Below, piece after piece: positions 3,058 to 13,637 of a DNA stretch of 64,000 nucleotides. The position numbers and the translations under genes are program-made. How positions within the stretch are numbered: position 1 is the first letter of the stretch; every line of letters starts with the position of its first letter. Below the pieces are notes generated by a model. The model did not search any database. It had not been told where the DNA came from and saw nothing but the letters and a program-made list of their open reading frames with translations. The stretch is from an uncultured Veillonellaceae bacterium (GTDB lineage Bacteria > Bacillota > Negativicutes > JARBTT01), in contig CAWDTA010000002.1 in the NCBI GenBank assembly GCA_963805085.1, forward strand, positions 192,001 through 256,000. Direction: 5' to 3'.

Positions 3058-4086
3058 TTAAGACATACTATTTGTTCTTAATGTTGTTAAACTATCTTCT
3101 AATTTATCAATAGAATCTAGTGCTTTTCCTGTACCCAACGCAACACAAGACAATGGATCTTCTGCTAAATATGTAGGAATACCAGTTTCTTTTTGAATCA
3201 ATTTATCTAAGCCAAATAACAATGAACCGCCACCAGTCATAACGATACCACGATCCATAATATCTGAAGCAAGTTCTGGTGGAGTATCTTCAAGTACTTT
3301 TTTTACACATTGTACAATGCGAGTTACAGGTTCATTAAGTGCTTCGCAAGTTTCATTGACTTCCATTTTTATTGTTTTAGGCAAACCAGTTAATAGGTCA
3401 CGACCACGCACTTCTAAAGACCCCTTACGCGCATCCAAGATCGCCGTGCCGATATTGATCTTTATTTCTTCGGCAGTACGCTCGCCGATCATAATATTAT
3501 ATTCTTTTTTTACATAACGAACGATAGCTTCATCAAACTTATCGCCGCCGATACGAAGTGATTCACTGATAACAATACCGCCTAAACTGATTACTGCAAC
3601 GTCGGTTGTACCACCACCAATATCAACCACCATCGAACCATATGGTTCAGAAATTTCTAACCCTGCACCAAGTGCTGCTGCCAATGGTTCTTCTATTAAA
3701 TAAGTTTTACGAGCACCAGCTTGCACCGCTGCTTCTAATACTGCACGTTTTTCTACAGTAGTAACACCTGATGGGATGCATACCATGATACGTGGTTTAA
3801 ATAAGAAACTTCTACCTGCTACTTTTTCAATAAAGTGGCGAAGCATACTTTCTGTCGTATCATAGTCAGCAATAACGCCTTCACGAAGTGGACGAATCGC
3901 TACGATATTACCTGGGGTACGACCAAGCATACGACGTGCCTCTTCCCCAATTTCTAGCACTTTGTTCGTGTCACGATCAATTGCTACAACGGATGGCTCT
4001 CTAAGCACAATTCCTTTACCTTTTATGTAAACTAAAACATTGGCTGTACCTAAATCGACACCAATATCCATCGACATTCCAAACAT
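3058..4086 (-). CDS. mbl: MreB-like rod shape-determining protein (Mbl position)
   Basis: [20 protein letters not shown]; conserved spoIIID-mbl-flhO/flhP synteny. Confidence 0.9.
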
Positions 4087-4214: not shown

Positions 4215-4352
4215 CTAACATTTTTTATATTTTTTTCTTGTTGCTTCTCCGCCCCGAATATGGCGTTCTGCTTTATTCTCTTCTAATATTACTCTAATCT
4301 TTGCCGCTAACCTTTTATTGATAAGAGGCAATCGTTCAATCATATCTTTATG
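4215..4352 (-). CDS. spoIIID: spoIIID 3' half (codons 38-82), separated from its 5' half by the inserted element
   Basis: Manual translation HKDMIERLPLINKRLAAKIRVILEENKAERHIRGGEATRKKYKKC*, the conserved SpoIIID C-terminus (ERHIRGGEAT); lies directly upstream of mbl. Confidence 0.95.
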   Translation of the reverse strand, partial: HKDMIERLPLINKRLAAKIRVILEENKAERHIRGGEATRKKYKKC

Positions 4353-4377
4353 GAACGATTAACCAAAAATGAACGGT
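4342..4377. repeat. att junction next to spoIIID 3' half (core 4342-4352 + attP arm 4362-4377)
   Basis: Arm ACCAAAAATGAACGGT is a 15/16 inverted match to 13293-13308. Confidence 0.85.
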
Positions 4378-4479
4378 CACACGAAGGGGTTAATGCTCTT
4401 ATTTTCAAAGATCATTAACCCCACCTATAGTACTTATATTTTATTACAAAACTTACTGTTTAAAAATAGGTATGGTGCA

Positions 4480-4692
4480 CTATTTTTCAATATACTTAAT
4501 ACACTTTTCTGCTAAAAACTTTACAATACCATTTGCTTGCCTATTTTCATAAAAATCTACCATTAACGTATTGAATTCTAGTATGTCCTCTACCTTGATA
4601 TTAAATACACCGTAACCTGCATTAACTAATATACCATTTGCCATTAGGCGAGCAGTTCGTTTATTGGCATTCCAATAAATTACTCCAAACAT
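4480..4692 (-). pseudogene. C-terminal remnant of a Fic/Doc-family gene
   Basis: Begins at partial Fic motif WNANKRTARLMAN; N-terminal part with catalytic His absent. Confidence 0.6.
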
Positions 4693-4702
4693 AAAAGACT
4701 TA

Positions 4703-5335
4703 TCACCGACTTAATTTTTTATCAATATAATCCTCCATGATACCACGATATTCGGCGTTTTTCCCCTCTACCTTTAAATTTTCCTTTACCTTAAGCAAGA
4801 TTGCCTTTGTCCATTGCCCCTGAGCTTTGTAATGTGCTAATTTATTGCGAAGTGTCTCTAACGCAGCTTTACGATTTGTCTTTAAGAAAACACCTACACA
4901 ATCACAATTCAAATTCAAGGTCACATCTAAATCATTATTCGTTTCCCTATCTTCAGAGTAAATTGTTCCGTCTGATTTATATTTTATCAGCTGAACTTTA
5001 GAACGATCAAGTGGATTTATGGTTAACACAACATTCCCACGATGTGCATCACAAGTCATATCCTCTTTTCGGTGCCCCCTATGACCTAAACAAACGCCTA
5101 GCATATTACGATAATCTAACTCTAGATTTTCATCTACCGTCTTCGGAATATAGTGCTCTATAGTCATAGTATCCTTAGCAATTCTTCTCATGCAATATGC
5201 ACATATATGACCTTGCTCAATTAATAAAGCTTCTCGAACATTCTCTTTTTGTGAAAATCCATCATAATAAGCACCATTTTGTTGTTTGTATTTTATCAAG
5301 CTTGCTGGCTCTTGTCCCTTCTCTATAAAAATCAT
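4703..5335 (-). CDS. HNH endonuclease, Septu PtuB / TIGR02646-like
   Basis: EQGHICAYCM..IEHYIPK..YRNMLGVC..TCD HNH/Zn motifs; immediately downstream of an ABC-type ATPase. Confidence 0.85.
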   Translation of the reverse strand: MIFIEKGQEPASLIKYKQQNGAYYDGFSQKENVREALLIEQGHICAYCMRRIAKDTMTIEHYIPKTVDENLELDYRNMLGVCLGHRGHRKEDMTCDAHRGNVVLTINPLDRSKVQLIKYKSDGTIYSEDRETNNDLDVTLNLNCDCVGVFLKTNRKAALETLRNKLAHYKAQGQWTKAILLKVKENLKVEGKNAEYRGIMEDYIDKKLSR

Positions 5336-5339
5336 GATG

Positions 5340-6611
5340 TCAATCTCCCAATATAGTTGTTTCTAAATCCAACGTAATTTGGGCTTTTACTATATCAGGA
5401 TCATTGTCGTCCAACTCACCCATTAACTCTTCTAAAATAACTTTGGCTTTCCTATACTCTTCTTCGTCAATTGCTTGGTAGAAACCATCAAATTTATCTT
5501 TTACTTCTTTTGCACGTTCACCACTATGTTGAAAATAGGATAACACATCATTTACTTGATACCCATAAGCAGATGGTCTATACTCAATATCCATATCATT
5601 CTTAATGGTAATTAGTTGCTCATTTTTACAAGAAGCAATAATCAAGGGCGAATGCGTTGTAGTAATAAATTGTGTGCAAGGAAACGTTGTTTTTAACGCA
5701 TCAACAATTTTCCATTGCCATTTAGGATGTAAATGCAAGTCCAGTTCATCAATGAGAACAATCCCCGGCGTTTTACTGGTTACTTCTTTACGTAAATTTG
5801 GATTTAACACCGCCATACGATATGCGATATCCATAACCATCCAAATTACCGATTGATAACCAGAACTTAATAAGTGAATAGGAATGTTTTCTTCTTCATT
5901 TATACTATATACCAATTGACCTGTTCTCTTATGAAACCGTACTCCTTTGACCTGTTTTTCACACATAATACTCATAAAAGTAACAATTGCTTCTTTTACT
6001 GCTTCATACTCAGAAATTTTTTTATCTTCTTGCCAAGAAATTTCCTCCATCCGTTTGCACCAATTTAGCAACATCTTTGCATTAGATTCCTCTGCTAAGC
6101 AATCTATATAACCAACACTTCTAGTGTAATTCTCCCGAAATACATCTGTTGCTTTTTCCCGTTTTTGCGCCCACATTCTAGCAGCACTTTGATAATTAAT
6201 CAACGGTACTATTTTTTCGGTATCATCCAGCATTTCTTTACTAGCTCTGCAAATATCCCTAGGTTCTACTGTTGTCCTGCCTCTTAAAGTTTTCTTTTGC
6301 CTACCCCATGCAAATTCTTGATTATCTAAAATAGCCGTACATTCAACTTTTACTGGATATTCTTGTTTTATATTAATCGATCCATCACCAGTTAGCGTAC
6401 TTTCCAATCGAACTTCATCTTGGCTAATGTGTTTTGTATTAATTTCATTAACTCCCGCTAAAAAGCCACCTAACCCAACTGATATTGCTTCCAATATAGA
6501 TGTCTTTCCTACACCGTTATCCCCAATTAATATATTAAATCCAGCTTTAAAATTTAGAGCTACATCTTTAATTCCTTTAAAATTTTTAATCAGAATTGAC
6601 TGTAATTGCAA
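5340..6611 (-). CDS. ABC/AAA_21-type ATPase, Septu PtuA-like
   Basis: Walker A GDNGVGKT, signature LSSGYQ, Walker B/D-loop VLIDELDLHLHPKWQ, H-loop TTHSP. Confidence 0.85.
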   Translation of the reverse strand: MQLQSILIKNFKGIKDVALNFKAGFNILIGDNGVGKTSILEAISVGLGGFLAGVNEINTKHISQDEVRLESTLTGDGSINIKQEYPVKVECTAILDNQEFAWGRQKKTLRGRTTVEPRDICRASKEMLDDTEKIVPLINYQSAARMWAQKREKATDVFRENYTRSVGYIDCLAEESNAKMLLNWCKRMEEISWQEDKKISEYEAVKEAIVTFMSIMCEKQVKGVRFHKRTGQLVYSINEEENIPIHLLSSGYQSVIWMVMDIAYRMAVLNPNLRKEVTSKTPGIVLIDELDLHLHPKWQWKIVDALKTTFPCTQFITTTHSPLIIASCKNEQLITIKNDMDIEYRPSAYGYQVNDVLSYFQHSGERAKEVKDKFDGFYQAIDEEEYRKAKVILEELMGELDDNDPDIVKAQITLDLETTILGD

Positions 6612-6829
6612 ATTGACACCTCCTAACTATCAAATTTAACCACTATATATTAAACGTACATGTATAAGTAATCATTTTGGTACAAGTCTACGAACCATAT
6701 TTTCAAATACATATTTATACTTATACCCCAAACTACATAGTTTATATTCGTAATAACTATGTAAAATCCTTCATTTATACCGCTAATTTGGCTTATATAA
6801 GTAAATGCAATAATATTAGTCCTAAACTA

Positions 6830-6868
6830 AAAGAACCTATTGCACAATTTTTAAAAGCAATAGGTTCT
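6830..6868 (-). terminator. Probable intrinsic terminator of the recombinase gene
   Basis: Hairpin AGAACCTATTGC...GCAATAGGTTCT just past the stop codon, followed by a T-run on the minus strand. Confidence 0.6.
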
Positions 6869-6874
6869 CTACGT

Positions 6875-8410
6875 TTATATAGCAGCCGCATGGGTAATCT
6901 CCAAATCGGAAAATAATTTCAAATAAACTTGGAGCTCACCTTCTACGGTCACAACAATTTTATCAATGACCTTTCTCAGCAAAGCATTATCAATAAGTTC
7001 TGCATTTAGCACGGCTTGAATACTACCACAATACTTACGAACCACTTCGTCAATCCGACTTAAAATAGAAGTATTCCCTCTGATAGCACTAAGTTCATTC
7101 TCGTATTTGGCTATTGCCAAATTTAATTCAGTGGTTCGTTCTTTGAGTTCATCAATCGTAATAGCGTCAACTTCAAACATTTCTGTTTGTTTTGATTTTG
7201 CTTTCTTGAGCCTTGCCAATTCAGCCAATATAAAAGGTTCCGACAGTTCATTATCTTGCGGTTTATATTGTTTTCTAAATTCGGTTATTGTTTGCTTTAA
7301 CAGCTTGTCCTTCGATGATACCAACCCGCCCAAATAGCTTTTAATCTCCTCGATCAGTTCTTTTTCATCGATAATTGTATGATTGTTACAGAAATCCATG
7401 CCGTTAGCGTTCCTACCAGAACAGCACCACCGTATGTATTCATTAACGTACTTTCTCTGTGTCCTTCTGAAGCTATAACCGCAATCACCACATTTGATAA
7501 GAGTACTAAAACAATATTTGTTTGATTGACGTTTATTGGTTATACGAAAATTTTCTGTTCGCTCAGCGAGCAAAGATTGTGCTTTAGCAAAAAGTTCCTT
7601 ATCAATAATAGTAAGTTCTGGCTTGTCTACAATAAATTGTTTATCAACGCTATTCTTCACTCGTTCACCAGTCAAAAAATCCTTAACCGATTCTTTGCCA
7701 TTGATAACCTTACCTGTATAAAGCGGATTGGTTAGTATCGTAGAAATTGCTTGCTGTGACCACCGGCATTTACGTTTTGTTACTAACCCTTCCTTATTTA
7801 ATAGCTGTGAAATCTTGTTGGCACCATGCCGCTGATTTACATAGTAATCAAATATGCGTTTTACAACCTTTGACTCTACTTCATTTATTGTTAGATTAAA
7901 ATATTCACCTACTGTTTTATCATAACCATAGACAATATTAGGAACCCGCCCCTTTTCGGCATTACGTTTTTTACCAAACTTTACACGTTTAGAAAGATTA
8001 GCCGATTCTTCCTGAGCAACAGCTGCCAATATTGTCAAGGTCAATTCACCATCATTGCTAGACATATTGGCCGTTACGAAGCGGCAATCAATATTTAATG
8101 ACTTTAGTTTACGAATGCTCTGGAGAAAGTCTACGACGTTACGCGCAAGCCTAGATACATCTTTTACAAATACGCATTCAAACTTTCTTCGCTGAGCATC
8201 AAGCATCATACGGTTGAACTCTTTACGATTTTTTAACTTAGTCCCACTAATCCCTTCGTCAGCATACAACTCAACAAGCTCATAATTATTTTTAACAGCA
8301 TACTCTTCAAAAAATTCTTTCTGTGCTTGCAGACTTAATAGCTGCTCGTCCTTTTCAGTTGATACCCTACAGTAAGCGGCAATTTTTTGTTTTCCATCAC
8401 TACCAACCAT
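6875..8410 (-). CDS. Large serine recombinase (integrase/excisionase, SpoIVCA/SprA-type architecture)
   Basis: Catalytic AAYCRVST, YADEGISGT, KDVSRLARN; recombinase domain; Zn ribbon CGDCG..CCSG..C; coiled coil; RBS GGAGG before ATG 8410 (ORF track start 8431). Confidence 0.95.
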   Translation of the reverse strand: MVGSDGKQKIAAYCRVSTEKDEQLLSLQAQKEFFEEYAVKNNYELVELYADEGISGTKLKNRKEFNRMMLDAQRRKFECVFVKDVSRLARNVVDFLQSIRKLKSLNIDCRFVTANMSSNDGELTLTILAAVAQEESANLSKRVKFGKKRNAEKGRVPNIVYGYDKTVGEYFNLTINEVESKVVKRIFDYYVNQRHGANKISQLLNKEGLVTKRKCRWSQQAISTILTNPLYTGKVINGKESVKDFLTGERVKNSVDKQFIVDKPELTIIDKELFAKAQSLLAERTENFRITNKRQSNKYCFSTLIKCGDCGYSFRRTQRKYVNEYIRWCCSGRNANGMDFCNNHTIIDEKELIEEIKSYLGGLVSSKDKLLKQTITEFRKQYKPQDNELSEPFILAELARLKKAKSKQTEMFEVDAITIDELKERTTELNLAIAKYENELSAIRGNTSILSRIDEVVRKYCGSIQAVLNAELIDNALLRKVIDKIVVTVEGELQVYLKLFSDLEITHAAAI

Positions 8411-8452
8411 CGTATAACTTCCTCCCTTCATTCAAAATTGAAACAATTTTAA

Positions 8453-8614
8453 TTAAGCTGAATGCCTAACATCATAACCGATATCATCATCACCAGTCTT
8501 ATCATTGATTTCTCTATTAACTTTATTTATAATCGCTGAAGCTAAAATTTTAGGTAGATACTTGTCCACCGCATCTTCACTATTAGGATTAACAAACGTA
8601 ATTTTAAGGCTCAT
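8453..8614 (-). CDS. Small 53-aa protein upstream of the recombinase, candidate recombination directionality factor
   Basis: Strong RBS GAGGGGGAG; MSLKITFVNPNSEDAVDKYLPKILASAIINKVNREINDKTGDDDIGYDVRHSA*; co-oriented, 42 bp before LSR start. Confidence 0.65.
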   Translation of the reverse strand: MSLKITFVNPNSEDAVDKYLPKILASAIINKVNREINDKTGDDDIGYDVRHSA

Positions 8615-8812
8615 AGTAAACTCCCCCTCACATATTAAAAAATTGATTAGCCACCAACTATAGTTTTGTATAGTAAATCTTATTGTTATGACACCAAAAA
8701 TATAACCATAAAATTTTACCTACATAAGAAATACCCATAATTCAAAACCCTTGCTATGGTTCCGAACAAAAAAGGCTCCACGTCAGACCACGCGAAGCCG
8801 TGAATTTACTAA

Positions 8813-8873
8813 TGGCAGAGAGGGATGGATTCGAACCCTTGGCACCTTGCGGTACAATTGATTTGGAGTAAAC
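8813..8873 (-). pseudogene. Degenerate 3' fragment of a tRNA-Ser
   Basis: Minus strand has long variable arm GTACCGCAAGGTGC, T-loop GGTTCGAATCC and a GCCA end; no 5' acceptor or D arm. Confidence 0.7.
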
Positions 8874-9205
8874 TATCTTTTCTAAAATTGACTTATTCCA
8901 CATAAAAAGCAATGCCATAAGAAGAAACAGATAACTATTATATATCATCTATTAATTGTTATTGTTGGATAAATATTGAATAATTTGTCAAGCGATGTTA
9001 ATATAAAAGTGCAACTAGCATTGCTTAACACAAGAGATAAACTAAGGGAGCTTATCCTTTTAGGGACAAAACATGGTCGTTATTTCCAATTTGTTTCCTA
9101 TTAGCCATGCCCTCCGTCAAAGGGATAAAATTTATCTTATAAGTCATAATATGATATTTCATTCAATTATAGATCATATATCCAAATGGTATATAGAATA
9201 AAGAG

Positions 9206-10174
9206 GTGGTTCATATATTTTTTTTAATCGGGATAGTATCAACATTTATTATGCTTTCATTACTTCCAAATACTTCTTTTGGTCGTAATAGAAGCATCAC
9301 GGCATTGTTTATGTTCGTTTATTCTTCATTGTATTTTTTCATTATTCAGTATGGATTAACTGTAAATAATTCTTTTAAAATTCCTCTCTTTTTTGTAGCA
9401 TTAATTTTAATTTTATATTTATCAACGGCCGATAGGTATATTAATCTAAAATTGGATTTAGATATGCTATTTAAAATTGTTTTGTTTATAATGATACCGA
9501 TAGTAGTATGTTTTTCGTTTCCAACCGCTAATAATCAATTTCACTTAATTGATATATTAATTGTTGCTTTTGTTTTTGGAATAAATCAATCACGTTTTAA
9601 TAAAACCACAATGTTATATCAAGAAAGCACAATTGAATTTTATGGATCGTCTACTACAGCTCATCTTCTAATTTTGTTTATTTTTCTGGGCTATAGGAAA
9701 ATTAATATCAATCTATTTTTCATTAATACAATGGATGCATGGGGATTAACTTTGGTAGTTACTTTTTTATGTTGTTTTTTCGCAATTTTTATTGGAGTAA
9801 AATTAAACTATCTTAGTTTTAATTTCAAAAAAGTTAAAACTAAAACTTTACTAATATTAACTATTTTTAATTTTTTTCATATAGCAATAGCAGAAGAAAT
9901 TATCTATAGAGGATTTGTCTATAATTATCTACGACAGTTCATCGGTGGAGGAGATTGGATACCACTGGTATTGACAACTTTATTATTTGGGTGTCACCAT
10001 ATTAGCTTTGGTGGCAGAAGAATGTTTGTACTTTCTTCTATAGCTGGTTTCTTTTATGGTTTAATATATATGCTTACAGGAAACCTATTAACCTCGGCAA
10101 TTATTCATACTATTACTAATATGGTTTGGCGATTATTTTTTGTTATAAGATCTAATGTAGAGGCGCAAAAATGA
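9206..10174 (+). CDS. CPBP (CAAX/Abi) family intramembrane metalloprotease
   Basis: Multi-TM; motifs AEEIIYRG, FGCHH, HTITN. Confidence 0.85.
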   Translation: MVHIFFLIGIVSTFIMLSLLPNTSFGRNRSITALFMFVYSSLYFFIIQYGLTVNNSFKIPLFFVALILILYLSTADRYINLKLDLDMLFKIVLFIMIPIVVCFSFPTANNQFHLIDILIVAFVFGINQSRFNKTTMLYQESTIEFYGSSTTAHLLILFIFLGYRKININLFFINTMDAWGLTLVVTFLCCFFAIFIGVKLNYLSFNFKKVKTKTLLILTIFNFFHIAIAEEIIYRGFVYNYLRQFIGGGDWIPLVLTTLLFGCHHISFGGRRMFVLSSIAGFFYGLIYMLTGNLLTSAIIHTITNMVWRLFFVIRSNVEAQK

Positions 10175-10361
10175 TCCTGGTTTTGGTTCTATTATTATAG
10201 TGGGGAATAATAGCAATAATTACTTTTTACAATGATATTAAAAATAAATTTAATTATTGGTATTACAATGAAAGCCATGAATTCAGGAACTGCAATACTG
10301 AACCATTCGATAAAAAATGAAATTTTTAAAATATCAATGTGCATCAAAAATATAAGATACT

Positions 10362-10493
10362 CTATCCATAAGACGTATCCTTACCGCTCAATTTCTCAAT
10401 AAATACTTCTTCCGCTCTGAGCTCTTGCATAATTACTTCTTGCCGGATAGTATTTTGATCCAGCGAACTTACTCTTACATAACCGATTTTCAT
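10362..10493 (-). pseudogene. Truncated small serine resolvase (43 aa)
   Basis: MKIGYVRVSSLDQNTIRQ...EVFIEKLSGKD then stop; RBS GGGGAG. Confidence 0.8.
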
Positions 10494-10518
10494 ATGCTAC
10501 ACTCCCCATTAAAACAGA

Positions 10519-10629
10519 AAAAGTGTTCCACAAAGTCTACTTTGATTATGGGCTAGCCCAAAAATCATTTTTCGACTTATGTGGAACACTTTTATTTTGT
10601 ACCATTAAGGTATACCTTATTGGTGCACT
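10519..10629. repeat. res-site-like nested inverted repeats upstream of the resolvase remnant
   Basis: AAAAGTGTTCCACA..TGTGGAACACTTTT; inner TGGGCTAGCCCA; ACCATTAAGGTATACCTTATTGGT. Confidence 0.55.
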
Positions 10630-10636
10630 CATCTTA

Positions 10637-11821
10637 TTAATTTATATGCCTGTTATCATTAACTCGCTTTATGTACCGATTAAATTGAGGTACAGTAAAG
10701 TCCACTTCACCATAGCGGGGAGCATAGATAAACCCCTTATAAATCAATTGCCCTCTGACTGGCGAAATACTTTGCACACCTGTATTCATTTTGCTAGCTA
10801 TTTCGGCAATCGTACATGGTAATTCACCACATTCAACCATAGCAAGCATAAATTGCTTTTCCTTTGGTGTTGCTCGATCATACCGCACCTTGAAAAAGCT
10901 GTCATCCAAACTTCTCTCAAAATCCGGATAAGCTGCCTTCACAGATGCTAGATCAATAGTCTTATCTTTAATAAACGCCCAAACCTGTTTTCCATATTCC
11001 TGAAGAAAATAAGGATATCCTTCGGTAATTCTTAGTATTTCACCAATAGCGTCATCACTAAACGTTACATCCATTTTTTTAGCAGGCTCTACTAACGCCA
11101 ATTTAGCCGCCTCTGCTTCTAAAGAACCAATCGAAATAAAGCTAAATAGCCGTTCAGCATAGGATTTTATATCGCCAGCAATCTTGGTCACCTTCGGCAA
11201 GCCTGCTGAAATTAACGTCACAGGCAACCCCTTTTGATTTGCTCGATGCAAGGCAGTAATTAATGCTTCAAATTCATCATCTTTTAAATATTGTATTTCA
11301 TCAATAAATAGACAAACTGAACTTTCGCTATTTTTTGCAAGCGTTCCCATGGATACTAATAATTCCGTAAGATCATTAGAAAAATTTCCTGTATCCGATA
11401 CCCCTACTGCTGCATCCACTTCATCATTTATCCCTACACTTATTTCCCCCTCTGGAGAGTAAGTAATTTTAAAAGCTTTTAATACTGACATTGCTTTTTG
11501 AAAATAATTTTTTGCTTTTGCCTTAACGCTCATTTGTTTTATTAATTTTTGTATATGTAAAGAAATAGAGACTTTAAAAGACGAACGCTCTGACACTTCA
11601 ATGTGTTCATATAGGACATCATACTCGTCAGCAATCTCTTCAATTTTGTTTAAGAGTACGGTTTTCCCAACACCACGCAAGCCATAGTAAACCACCGAAC
11701 GAGCAGGATAGCCATGTGCCACATAAGCAATAATTTCTTTTGCTGCCTCAATGGTATCATCACGCCCAGCTAAATAATTTGGTACTAAACCCGCTCCCGG
11801 AGTATAAGGATTTATTATCAT
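10637..11821 (-). CDS. AAA-family (AAA_16-like) ATP-binding protein with C-terminal wHTH-like region
   Basis: NPYTPGAG..LAGRD, Walker A GLRGVGKT, Walker B LFIDEIQ, GYPYFLQ. Confidence 0.8.
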   Translation of the reverse strand: MIINPYTPGAGLVPNYLAGRDDTIEAAKEIIAYVAHGYPARSVVYYGLRGVGKTVLLNKIEEIADEYDVLYEHIEVSERSSFKVSISLHIQKLIKQMSVKAKAKNYFQKAMSVLKAFKITYSPEGEISVGINDEVDAAVGVSDTGNFSNDLTELLVSMGTLAKNSESSVCLFIDEIQYLKDDEFEALITALHRANQKGLPVTLISAGLPKVTKIAGDIKSYAERLFSFISIGSLEAEAAKLALVEPAKKMDVTFSDDAIGEILRITEGYPYFLQEYGKQVWAFIKDKTIDLASVKAAYPDFERSLDDSFFKVRYDRATPKEKQFMLAMVECGELPCTIAEIASKMNTGVQSISPVRGQLIYKGFIYAPRYGEVDFTVPQFNRYIKRVNDNRHIN

Positions 11822-11931
11822 ACAATCACCTTCTTGTCATGATTATTACCGCAATTATATCTTTATATTCGATAAATTTCAATATTTACGCTAAAAAATG
11901 CTTATATCTTTATTGATACACCCATTCAATT

Positions 11932-13161
11932 CTATAATTTTGCTACTACATCTAAATTCACACTATAAACATTCATTTTACCACTTTGCTTAACACTCAG
12001 CATATCTTTAGGTATTTGCTTAATCCAACCACGAATTGTAGATGGACTTAATTCAGCAATTTCTACTAGATTTTGAATACTAACACCTTCATCATCAAAC
12101 AAAGTACTTTGCACCAAAGCATGCAATATATTTCGGATTGGTTTATCTCCATTTGCATATTTTTCAATTTTTTCTTTATAAAAATTATACTGTTCGCCTT
12201 TTCCTTCAATAATAATACATAAATTTTCGATAGTTTCTTCTATAAGTTCCAAAAATCCAATAACAAAAGGAGTTAAATCACCTTTATTTTTATAATCATT
12301 CACTTCCTTAAACATATCATAATATTTTTTAAGCTTATTTTTAATCGTATACGACAAACTAAAACCAACTACTGATTCTAATTGCTGATTTAATAGATAG
12401 CTACTAATGAATCTTGCCATTCTGCCGTTGCCATCATAAAAAGGATGTATATAACCAAACATATAGTGAAATACTGCTATATTCACGAAATCGTTTAATT
12501 TATTATTGTTTAACATATCTAGTGCAACTGTCATAGCTGTAATAATTTTGGCTTCGGGATACATACCCTTATGAATCACCTTTTGGCTTGATGAAATTAT
12601 TTCAACAATTTCTTTTCTAAAAATATCACCATCTGGAGCATTATCTGGATTATCAGCTTTTACTTCTGCTAAAACGAATTCATCATAAAGTTTTCTAATA
12701 TCCTGACAGGATTTTAAAGTAAATTCCTGTCCATATGACAACATCATATATTTTTGTACCAAACCATACAAACGCTTCTTTTCCTTATTTTCTGTTTTAT
12801 CATCAATTAGCTCTCTGATTTCTTTACGTGTACTGTGAACACCCTCAATCTCGTTAGTCAGCTGAATTTCATCTACAATACACTTTAACGTAAATTGAGT
12901 CAAAGCAATCGGCGGTACACTTTTGGTTATTTTTAAAAGTCTCTTATCCAATTTCAAAATACTGGTTAATAAATTTAAAATTTCTAAATTCATAACAACA
13001 AACGCCCGATTTTCACCAATTGTAAAATCATAACGATAAGTAAACTCGTTATTAAATCTTTCTTTATATGTAGTTTCATAGGCTTCATTATTTTTATAAA
13101 ACAATTTATTTAAAGATTTATACAACACTTGACTCACATCCTTTTTGTCATTATACTTCAC
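11932..13161 (-). CDS. Fic-family protein with C-terminal HTH
   Basis: Canonical HPFYDGNGRMAR; TNEIEG inhibitory-like motif; C-terminal ELSPSTIRGWI HTH. Confidence 0.9.
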   Translation of the reverse strand: MKYNDKKDVSQVLYKSLNKLFYKNNEAYETTYKERFNNEFTYRYDFTIGENRAFVVMNLEILNLLTSILKLDKRLLKITKSVPPIALTQFTLKCIVDEIQLTNEIEGVHSTRKEIRELIDDKTENKEKKRLYGLVQKYMMLSYGQEFTLKSCQDIRKLYDEFVLAEVKADNPDNAPDGDIFRKEIVEIISSSQKVIHKGMYPEAKIITAMTVALDMLNNNKLNDFVNIAVFHYMFGYIHPFYDGNGRMARFISSYLLNQQLESVVGFSLSYTIKNKLKKYYDMFKEVNDYKNKGDLTPFVIGFLELIEETIENLCIIIEGKGEQYNFYKEKIEKYANGDKPIRNILHALVQSTLFDDEGVSIQNLVEIAELSPSTIRGWIKQIPKDMLSVKQSGKMNVYSVNLDVVAKL

Positions 13162-13182
13162 TCAAACAAGCAAGTAAACAAC

Positions 13183-13240
13183 AAATAAAACTATTTACTT
13201 ATTAATTTATGATTATTTTAATAAGTAAATAGTTTTATTT
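13183..13240. promoter_or_regulatory. 23-bp perfect inverted repeat upstream of the fic gene (operator or hairpin)
   Basis: AAATAAAACTATTTACTTATTAA (13183-13205) / TTAATAAGTAAATAGTTTTATTT (13218-13240). Confidence 0.55.
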
Positions 13241-13292
13241 TAAATTTTCTTATTATATTTTACCCATTTTAATATGATTAAATTCAATTTTC

Positions 13293-13319
13293 ACCGTTCA
13301 CTTTTGGTATATCTTTATG
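13293..13319. repeat. att junction next to spoIIID 5' half (attP arm 13293-13308 + core 13309-13319)
   Basis: ACCGTTCACTTTTGGT followed by ATATCTTTATG. Confidence 0.85.
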
Positions 13320-13430
13320 AACAGTACTTTTACTAACACCAAACACCACCGCTGCTTGCCGAACTGTATGTTTACTCTGCAAAATATGATCACAAATATC
13401 TAAGACACGTTTACGAATATATTCCTTCAT
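13309..13430 (-). CDS. spoIIID: spoIIID 5' half (codons 1-40; reads into the element and stops at 13284)
   Basis: RBS AGGGGG; MKEYIRKRVLDICDHILQSKHTVRQAAVVFGVSKSTVHKD, the SpoIIID N-terminal HTH. Confidence 0.95.
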
Positions 13431-13458
13431 TACTCTGCCCCCTAAAGCCATTTGCTAA

Positions 13459-13490
13459 CATGTATATGCAAACAATTAGGCAAGCAGAAC
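13459..13490 (-). promoter_or_regulatory. Possible SigE-type promoter of spoIIID
   Basis: Minus strand TTCTGCT-N14-CATATACAT; -10 resembles SigE cATAcanT, -35 weak. Confidence 0.35.
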
Positions 13491-13637
13491 AATGTAAAAA
13501 TTATACGATGATATAAAATAGAATGTGCGCGGTTATACCATAAAAATGGCTACACTAAAAATAAATTTTACATGTAGCCGCTATATATTTTTTTCTATAT
13601 GTTCCATACAACCAGCTCATTTTTAACAGGACTTTTA

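Follow-up and report, generated by a model that had tools for sequence, protein, structure and literature searches.

A serine-recombinase element divides spoIIID in a Negativicutes genome and may be excised during sporulation

The gene spoIIID, reported to be expressed in the mother cell (PMC517825), is divided in two by an 8967-bp element carrying a large serine recombinase in a genome assembled from an uncultured Veillonellaceae bacterium of the class Negativicutes (GCA_963805085.1). The stretch of DNA analysed here, which we call the window, comprises 64,000 nucleotides (contig CAWDTA010000002.1, positions 192,001 to 256,000 of the forward strand), and positions are given within it. We propose that the element is a non-phage island, seated at the CA of a histidine codon of spoIIID, that is excised developmentally in the mother cell. 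This proposal rests on analogy with characterised systems, on conservation and on selection, and we assign it a probability of about 0.72. An earlier sequence-only reading of the same DNA had suggested a skin-like element, and this suggestion is supported both by features visible in the sequence and by orthologous elements at the same site in relatives. Where the host is described as a diderm spore-former, that label is taken from the class name Negativicutes.

Results

Two halves of one gene

The sequence-only reading had placed the 5' and 3' halves of spoIIID some 9 kb apart. The gene is split at its V-H-K-D codons, and the Pfam family SpoIIID is matched by both pieces, the overlap between the two matches being the shared core:

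13309-13430, minus strand: spoIIID 5' half, from the ATG at 13430 through the V-H-K-D codons and the core; Pfam SpoIIID (PF12116) 1-41, E 1e-16
4215-4352, minus strand: spoIIID 3' half, from H-K-D-M-I-E-R-L-P to the stop at 4215-4217; Pfam SpoIIID 37-80, E 3.6e-19

In the integrated state, the frame of the 5' half continues into the element and meets a stop at 13284. Scripted removal of 8967 bp yields a single open spoIIID frame with one terminal stop, 82 codons long when counted from the conserved MKEY start (13430) and 89 from the upstream ATG at 13451. The in-frame 82-codon SpoIIID that had been predicted is thus recovered, and its alignment with 15 intact genes from relatives in the class spans the entire frame, at 73-89% identity. 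Its position upstream of mbl is equally as described (3058-4086; MreB_Mbl, E 2.6e-149); two flagellar rod genes follow mbl, and an intact gerA-type operon lies upstream of spoIIID. A search for an intact spoIIID elsewhere in the genome returned only the two halves, nothing else scoring above the Pfam cut-off in the whole assembly (5 contigs, 83% complete, estimated contamination 5.98%).

Attachment sites

Both halves had been said to end in the same 11-bp core, and this part of the earlier description stands: the core ATATCTTTATG, read on the plus strand, occurs exactly twice in the window, at 4342 and 13309, 8967 bp apart, and has no copy on the opposite strand of the window. What needs revision is the point of exchange, which is most likely a CA dinucleotide and not the core as a whole. 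The relevant features are as follows:

13309-13319: core copy beside the spoIIID 5' half (attL); proposed crossover dinucleotide 13318-13319, CA on the coding strand
4342-4352: core copy beside the spoIIID 3' half (attR); proposed crossover dinucleotide 4351-4352
13293-13308, minus strand: element arm ACCAAAAGTGAACGGT, 16 bp, 0 mismatches, 9 nt from the CA
4362-4377, plus strand: element arm ACCAAAAATGAACGGT, inverted partner of 13293-13308 with 1 mismatch, 9 nt from the CA

With a core flanked by imperfect inverted arms, the sites show the architecture of serine-integrase attachment sites (the arm search had a chance expectation of 0.5 for the four matches listed), and the CA of the His codon is the centre of symmetry of the reconstructed attP. 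The stretch that is identical at both junctions varies among the five elements compared, amounting to 11, 10 or 8 nt in some and to scattered short matches in two others (G013 and G036), and CA and AA are the only dinucleotides shared by attL and attR in all five. Because attP is symmetric about this CA and all five elements share it, we place the crossover, most likely, at the CA of the His codon. The arm sequence is kept in four of the five elements first compared; in G019 it has diverged.

Occupied and empty sites across Negativicutes

We find spoIIID in 74 of 401 genomes of the class, intact in 62, in two halves in 11 and as a lone, diverged 5' relic in one (G307). All 11 split genes (in this genome and in G013, G019, G034, G036, G043, G072, G084, G104, G132 and G172) are broken at profile position ~41, and they are spread over 8 families. 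In three of them (G043, G084 and G104) the halves lie on separate contigs; these were counted as split and left out of the locus comparison. In seven further loci both halves share one contig (G013, G019, G034, G036, G072, G132 and G172), and each of the seven, once fetched and searched with tblastn, proved to carry an orthologous recombinase, 58-85% identical to the one described here and in the orientation of spoIIID. At least eight contiguous Negativicutes loci, then, hold orthologous elements at the same spoIIID site. The inserts span 7.4-26 kb in the four measured and ~14-15 kb, by survey coordinates, in G072 and G132. Their cargo differs among the seven relatives, with only the AAA_16 gene (G034, 85%), Fic (G036, G072, G172) and PtuA/PtuB (G072) recurring. 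The G172 copy has decayed, with a truncated spoIIID 3' half and a different left arm.

The closest relative examined, G004, offers the unoccupied counterpart: all 18 flanking open reading frames (ORFs) are syntenic, at 57-95% identity, and its uninterrupted spoIIID contains the same 11-bp core with matching flanks, as an attB should.

A maximum-likelihood tree built from 20 recombinases contains a branch, with support 93/86 (not starred), that has all seven Negativicutes rows on one side. The rows nearest to them are those of Ruminiclostridium and Anaerobacterium, whose recombinases are 63-65% identical to the one described here; the gut-Clostridia clade is far away. The underlying alignments (A1 for the small ORF discussed below, A2 for the recombinase) retain 20 of 28 processed loci, the remainder having been dropped for want of a recognisable small ORF or because of doubtful gene ends.

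Two loci call for separate mention. The 14.8-kb element of G072 (L033, reverse complement) resembles two tandem elements, with an additional, incomplete copy of the recombinase (79% identical over residues 259-447; about 8387-8953) and an internal att-like site composed of arm and core (about 11030-11065), followed by a Fic gene. In G110, a 73% complete assembly that also has an intact spoIIID, a stray spoIIID fragment covering residues ~20-43 is fused to an element-type arm (G110:C71; L037, reverse complement, about 262-360); a relic junction, capture of a flank and strain mixture are all conceivable origins.

Selection on the divided gene

The joined genes are free of internal stops in all 7 contiguous loci tested (the decayed G172 was excluded), and they agree with the 15 intact genes at 42-44 of the 44 invariant columns, the joined gene of this genome at all 44. 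The invariant columns that are missed are mainly junction codons, which the crossover would replace. Measured against the nearest intact gene, the ratio of nonsynonymous to synonymous differences (pN/pS) is 0.035-0.097 across the seven joined genes and 0.078, at a pS of 0.53, in this genome, a measure that includes the time before insertion and cannot prove selection since then. Judged by these comparisons, the split halves are under purifying selection.

A large family of recombinases with the same target

A scan of species genomes returned 338 relatives of the recombinase. The best 80 of these, 49-85% identical, come mostly from Clostridia, with records from Lachnospiraceae, Oscillospiraceae, Christensenellaceae, Flavonifractor, Blautia and Ruminiclostridium. 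When the flanks of these best 80 were searched with the joined SpoIIID (tblastn), the spoIIID 3' half was found to adjoin the recombinase in 76, usually beginning a few bases past the recombinase stop, and the 5' half lay within the 10-kb flank in 12; three loci had no spoIIID match and one had an N-terminal-type match alone. The element thus belongs to an extensive family in which the serine recombinase is specific for this one spoIIID site.

The family is also nearly undescribed. A preprint mentions skin-like elements in cotJC of Laceyella sacchari and in spoIIID of Ruminiclostridium cellulolyticum (bioRxiv 10.1101/2022.02.25.481979); this one printed sentence is the only statement on spoIIID as a target that we found in the full-text literature, and Table S3 of the preprint may list more. 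The caution on novelty voiced in the sequence-only reading was therefore well placed. In the available text of the papers on gin and SPbeta, the interrupted genes named are sigK, spsM, spoVFB, spoVR and gerE, and spoIIID is absent (PMC5595907, PMC4191935). What the present analysis contributes is the Negativicutes subfamily, with its defence cargo, and a genome in which a sigK-like gene looks split as well.

Anatomy of the insert

Within the 8967 bp, all genes except that of a CAAX protease lie on the spoIIID strand:

11932-13161, minus strand: Fic-domain protein, SoFic-like (cargo); Pfam Fic E 1.4e-12, PADLOC SoFic E 3.4e-34
10637-11821, minus strand: AAA_16 ATPase (cargo), 85% identical to an ORF in the G034 element
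9206-10174, plus strand: CAAX/Rce1-like membrane protease (cargo), E 7.8e-17, the sole opposite-strand gene
8754-8948, minus strand: 64-aa ORF, a doubtful gene, with a terminator-like hairpin (8799-8774) in its 3' end
8453-8614, minus strand: conserved ORF of 53 aa with a ribosome-binding site, immediately before the recombinase; candidate directionality factor
6875-8431, minus strand: large serine recombinase, 518 aa; Resolvase, Recombinase and Zn_ribbon_recom domains
5340-6611, minus strand: PtuA ATPase of Septu (cargo); PADLOC E 3.5e-169, AAA_15/AAA_21
4703-5335, minus strand: PtuB HNH nuclease of Septu (cargo); PADLOC E 2.6e-67
4480-4692, minus strand: 70-aa ORF, a Fic-related fragment that clusters with Fic ORFs; C-terminal part of phrog_11900

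The intact-looking large serine recombinase that had been noticed in the insert has its three expected domains, and the catalytic R22/S24 and the four zinc-ribbon cysteines are invariant in family alignment A2. The genes for PtuA and PtuB adjoin, 4 nt apart, and together have the gene content of a Septu system (predicted defence). The 64-aa ORF matches no family, PADLOC included, and the 70-aa Fic-related ORF is probably a relic of an earlier rearrangement.

Phage structural, lysis, replication and conjugation genes were not found, either by Pfam on the 8 large ORFs or by PHROGs on 6, and the PHROGs matches consist of integrase and families of unknown function only. A prophage origin of the element, for which phage genes should have appeared in these searches, was accordingly rejected. 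So was the phage nature of the best recombinase match in the phage collection (MT838016.1, 46% identity), which proved to be chromosomal: this 6.4-kb faecal record (L123), filed as 'Bacteriophage sp.', is a fragment in which a recombinase of the family is directly followed by a spoIIID 3' half. The other phage recombinases listed are at most 33.5% identical to the one described here.

A candidate directionality factor and its promoter

In 7 of the 8 Negativicutes elements the recombinase gene is immediately preceded by an ORF of ~50 aa that has a ribosome-binding site, and many of the Clostridia relatives have a related small ORF, in which an F-x-N-P-N motif is followed by an amphipathic helix (alignment A1). 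In the window, this is the 53-aa ORF. It matches no Pfam family and no PHROG, and in a protein atlas it finds unnamed clusters alone (0.79-0.80), which we treat as a lead only. Complex prediction for the 53-aa protein with recombinase residues 170-518 gave a score of 0.60, the best of 3 controls scoring 0.00; runs agreed in at least 77% of contacts, and the partner had a predicted local confidence (pLDDT) of at least 63. The mark applied is reached by 58 of 80 solved complexes and by 2 of 110 mismatched pairs; among those passing at 0.60 or below are only 7 of the 80 solved complexes but both of the mismatches that passed, so that the score lends weak support to binding. Its position and the analogy with known systems make the 53-aa protein a candidate recombination directionality factor.

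When might such a factor be expressed? The spoIIID gene itself offers a point of reference:

13459-13494, minus strand: spoIIID promoter region; conserved -10-like box GCATATACATG (13469-13459), matrix score 31.0

Across 23 loci, the footprint kCATTTTTT-N13-GCATATAcATG is conserved at the spoIIID promoter, its -35 region differing in this lineage; by its likeness to the sigma-E consensus, we take the promoter to be a putative sigma-E-type one. A motif that resembles this footprint in shape, CTAyT-N14-CATAG, precedes the small ORF in 16 of the 18 distinct upstream regions from Clostridia, against 22 of 3600 control windows, counts to be read with the knowledge that the regular expression was written after seeing the sequences and that many of the loci are close kin.

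In Negativicutes, upstream alignment, regular expressions, matrix and k-mers gave inconsistent results for a shared promoter of small ORF and recombinase, with only AT-rich words recurring, and this candidate was dropped. A consensus scan for sigma-70 promoters and terminators was at chance (54 promoter-like sites versus 49.2 expected). We also discarded the idea that the recombinase is reached by read-through from the spoIIID promoter, since the convergent CAAX gene and the terminator-like hairpin at 8799-8774 intervene; such read-through is possible in G019, where the small ORF begins ~160 nt past the junction.

The second-best match in the element to the spoIIID promoter matrix (7.2 versus 31) lies in the attR arm and core (GTTCATTTTT ... 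CATAAAGAT; 4342-4377, minus strand). It would face the spoIIID 3' half, and the site is also present in G034 and G072. This match is probably due to chance.

Joined forms in metagenomes

In one metagenome run (X2), a contig joins 4341 to 13309, skipping exactly 8967 bp; the junction leaves 11 ambiguous letters, and the contig (likeness of at least 90%, depth 2.6) has 44 letters on its shorter side. The occupied junction is bridged as well, by further contigs from X2. The joined form is present, then, in a related population. Parts of the stretch have no contig cover in runs X1-X4 (e.g. about 4981-5961), and we draw no inference from this. Run X2 also holds a variant element in which 4498-6896, comprising Septu and part of the recombinase flank, is swapped for 233 other letters, which indicates that cargo turns over while the element ends stay.

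Sporulation competence

Three carriers of the element (G019, G034 and G072) and the empty-site relative G004 all have matches to Spo0A_C, SpoIVA and SpoIIGA, the three G004 genes (spo0A, spoIVA, spoIIGA) lying within ~270 kb. Of the ORFs in 60 kb sampled in G004, nearly all lack an orthologue in the assembly under study, where the matches are at paralogue level (33-64% identity); the unmatched ones include FtsK, EPSP synthase (aroA), homoserine dehydrogenase (hom), a RecN-like protein and a class-I tRNA synthetase. The block concerned, compared over G004:C7:55000-340000, holds spoIIGA-sigE, spoIVA, spoIVB and spo0A along with housekeeping genes. A missing chromosomal block is the simplest reading of the absent sporulation genes and fits the 83% completeness. 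With the neighbouring housekeeping blocks missing too, we rejected loss of sporulation as the explanation for the unmatched Spo0A, SpoIVA and SpoIIGA. Gene-content calls for this genome need care.

Discussion

How excision might work, and what else could explain the split

The model we favour runs as follows. Vegetative cells and the forespore would keep the element integrated, with spoIIID giving only a truncated product of 48 residues. Once sigma-E is active in the mother cell, the 53-aa protein would act as directionality factor, the recombinase would recombine attL with attR and an 8967-bp circle would leave, restoring the 82-codon spoIIID behind its own promoter. With the element located inside spoIIID, SpoIIID itself cannot be required for excision; we infer, by analogy, that excision in this organism is mother-cell-specific and SpoIIID-independent. 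As the mother cell is terminal, the spore would keep the element, and we propose that it is inherited vertically in this way. Cargo such as Septu and the SoFic-like Fic protein may repay the host for maintaining the element.

Several observations weigh against this model. In none of the 7 Negativicutes elements searched with regular expressions and the matrix (built from 22 distinct spoIIID promoters) did we find a sigma-E-like promoter upstream of the small ORF, which leaves sigma-E timing unsupported for this subfamily, and the Clostridia motif was defined after the fact. Spo0A_C, SpoIVA and SpoIIGA have no match in this assembly, 83% complete as it is. The best share of the stretch in any public run is 0.12, and the joined contig of run X2 may stem from a relative that never had the element. 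The low pN/pS ratios are partly a record of the time before insertion, and the decay in G172 implies that not every insertion is maintained.

Some of these points would also be expected if spoIIID were a mere safe attB for an ordinary integrative defence island, with the gene knocked out, the host asporogenous or a poor sporulator, and excision serving transfer. Defence genes are cargo in many islands, the Negativicutes elements lack a sporulation-type promoter, the assembly has no spo0A, spoIVA or spoIIGA match, and one copy is decaying. However, were the gene simply sacrificed, we would not expect all 7 contiguous loci to keep intact halves, with pN/pS of 0.035-0.097, nor an intact gerA operon beside the gene; carriers G019, G034 and G072 do have Spo0A, SpoIVA and SpoIIGA; the absence of FtsK, aroA, recN and class-I tRNA synthetase genes from this assembly points to an assembly gap; and neither Pfam nor PHROGs finds transfer or phage genes in the element. 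We regard a plain defence island as unlikely. Alternatively, excision might be reversible or stochastic and occur in some vegetative cells, making the element a population-level on/off switch for sporulation akin to 'active lysogeny'. The joined and occupied forms do occur as contigs in one metagenome run, recombinase and small ORF lack a recognisable mother-cell promoter in the Negativicutes subfamily, and the C. difficile recombinase is reported to be expressed vegetatively (PMC5025042). Yet germ-line excision would lose the element, which has instead been kept in 8 families and forms its own recombinase clade (7/7, 93/86); a motif like that of the spoIIID promoter precedes the small ORF in Clostridia relatives; and the characterised precedents, as their published accounts describe them, are all confined to the mother cell (PMC5595907, PMC4191935, PMC6957869, PMC5025042). 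A stochastic switch strikes us as quite improbable. That foreign DNA was put into spoIIID by chimeric assembly is scarcely credible: the genome is 83% complete with 5.98% estimated contamination, but the same architecture recurs in 7 other contiguous loci of independent genomes and at 76 of the 80 related loci, the occupied junction is spanned by metagenome contigs, and precise core duplication with symmetric arms is unlike mis-assembly.

A probable second split regulator

Another mother-cell regulator in this genome also looks split. The assembly has just one further large serine recombinase (G000:C5:701446-703455), 24% identical to that of the spoIIID element and flanked by pieces of a sigma factor ~2.7 kb apart (G000:C5:700893-704401; L122 6893-10401). 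The 5' piece is a 173-aa ORF with Sigma70 region 2 only and the 3' piece a 97-aa frame with Sigma70 region 4 (E 2.9e-14). G004 has an unbroken frame of 264 codons to which the 5' piece is 90% identical; this frame differs from the sigE beside spoIIGA (58%), so the divided gene is probably sigK, interrupted by a minimal skin-like element. In two further genomes with a divided spoIIID the sigK-like gene seems to be interrupted too: its pieces lie ~38 kb apart in G019 (G019:C1:819413-857962), broken at a different residue, and the frame in G034 (G034:C9:145104-145550) is open for 169 codons only and is possibly split.

One could imagine two successive DNA-editing checkpoints, in which spoIIID is first rebuilt in a sigma-E-timed, SpoIIID-independent manner and SpoIIID then licenses excision of the 2.7-kb sigK element. 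We think this rather unlikely. If true, domesticated mobile elements would serve as serial timers of the passage from sigma-E to SpoIIID to sigma-K in diderm spore-formers, an arrangement of serial excisions that they would also use to carry defence islands through the germ line.

Implications

In the two models studied, SpoIIID helps to trigger excision of the sigK element. An element within spoIIID needs an earlier trigger, be it sigma-E or another, and for that reason gives a natural opportunity to test how these elements are wired into the programme of sporulation. There are practical consequences as well. Given the size of the family (11 of the 74 Negativicutes genomes with spoIIID, 338 recombinase relatives), annotation will frequently record spoIIID as missing or pseudogenised, and sporulation ability will be wrongly predicted in these taxa when gene content is the guide. 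Septu and the SoFic-like protein are examples of defence systems travelling in a location that would ensure vertical inheritance, and a recombinase with a well-defined, conserved 40-50-bp target and a candidate partner protein is raw material for integrase work.

Comparison with known systems

In its layout the element recalls skin of Bacillus subtilis, where sigK is split and excision involves the recombinase SpoIVCA and the 64-aa directionality factor Skr (PMC6957869). Both are large serine recombinase elements in the gene of a mother-cell regulator; skr lies directly upstream of spoIVCA, as the small ORF lies upstream of the recombinase here; the recombinase adjoins the 3' half of the gene, here in most relatives; and both would be inherited vertically through the spore. 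The target differs, however (sigK there, spoIIID here), the present element lacks phage-like genes and its small ORF does not overlap the recombinase gene. Moreover, expression of spoIVCA and skr in B. subtilis is reported to use sigma-E and SpoIIID, and the latter cannot be required here. The same holds for skinCd of Clostridioides difficile, with its recombinase CD1231 and 72-aa directionality factor CD1234 (PMC5025042). There, a small, acidic protein without a family turns an integrase into an excisionase, which is the model proposed here, but expression of CD1234 is described as needing sigma-E plus SpoIIID, impossible for an element inside spoIIID, and the target gene is another.

The gin element in gerE of Bacillus cereus ATCC 10987, which has GirC, GirX and restriction-modification cargo (PMC5595907), is similar in being non-phage, in its accessory cargo, in interrupting the very small gene of a helix-turn-helix regulator and in the short consensus core at its junctions; it differs in having three recombinases against the one found here, in its target and in the class of its host. 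SPbeta supplies the closest full-length solved recombinase, SprA (YokA) with SprB (YotN) (9dxh and 9dxd; E 5e-13, residues 34-496). It too is a sporulation-linked excision system, by the available account (PMC4191935), but SprA is a distant paralogue and SPbeta an active prophage in spsM. The element of Ruminiclostridium cellulolyticum alone shares the target gene: it belongs to the class Clostridia and, in the printed text of the preprint, is noted only and not analysed (bioRxiv 10.1101/2022.02.25.481979).

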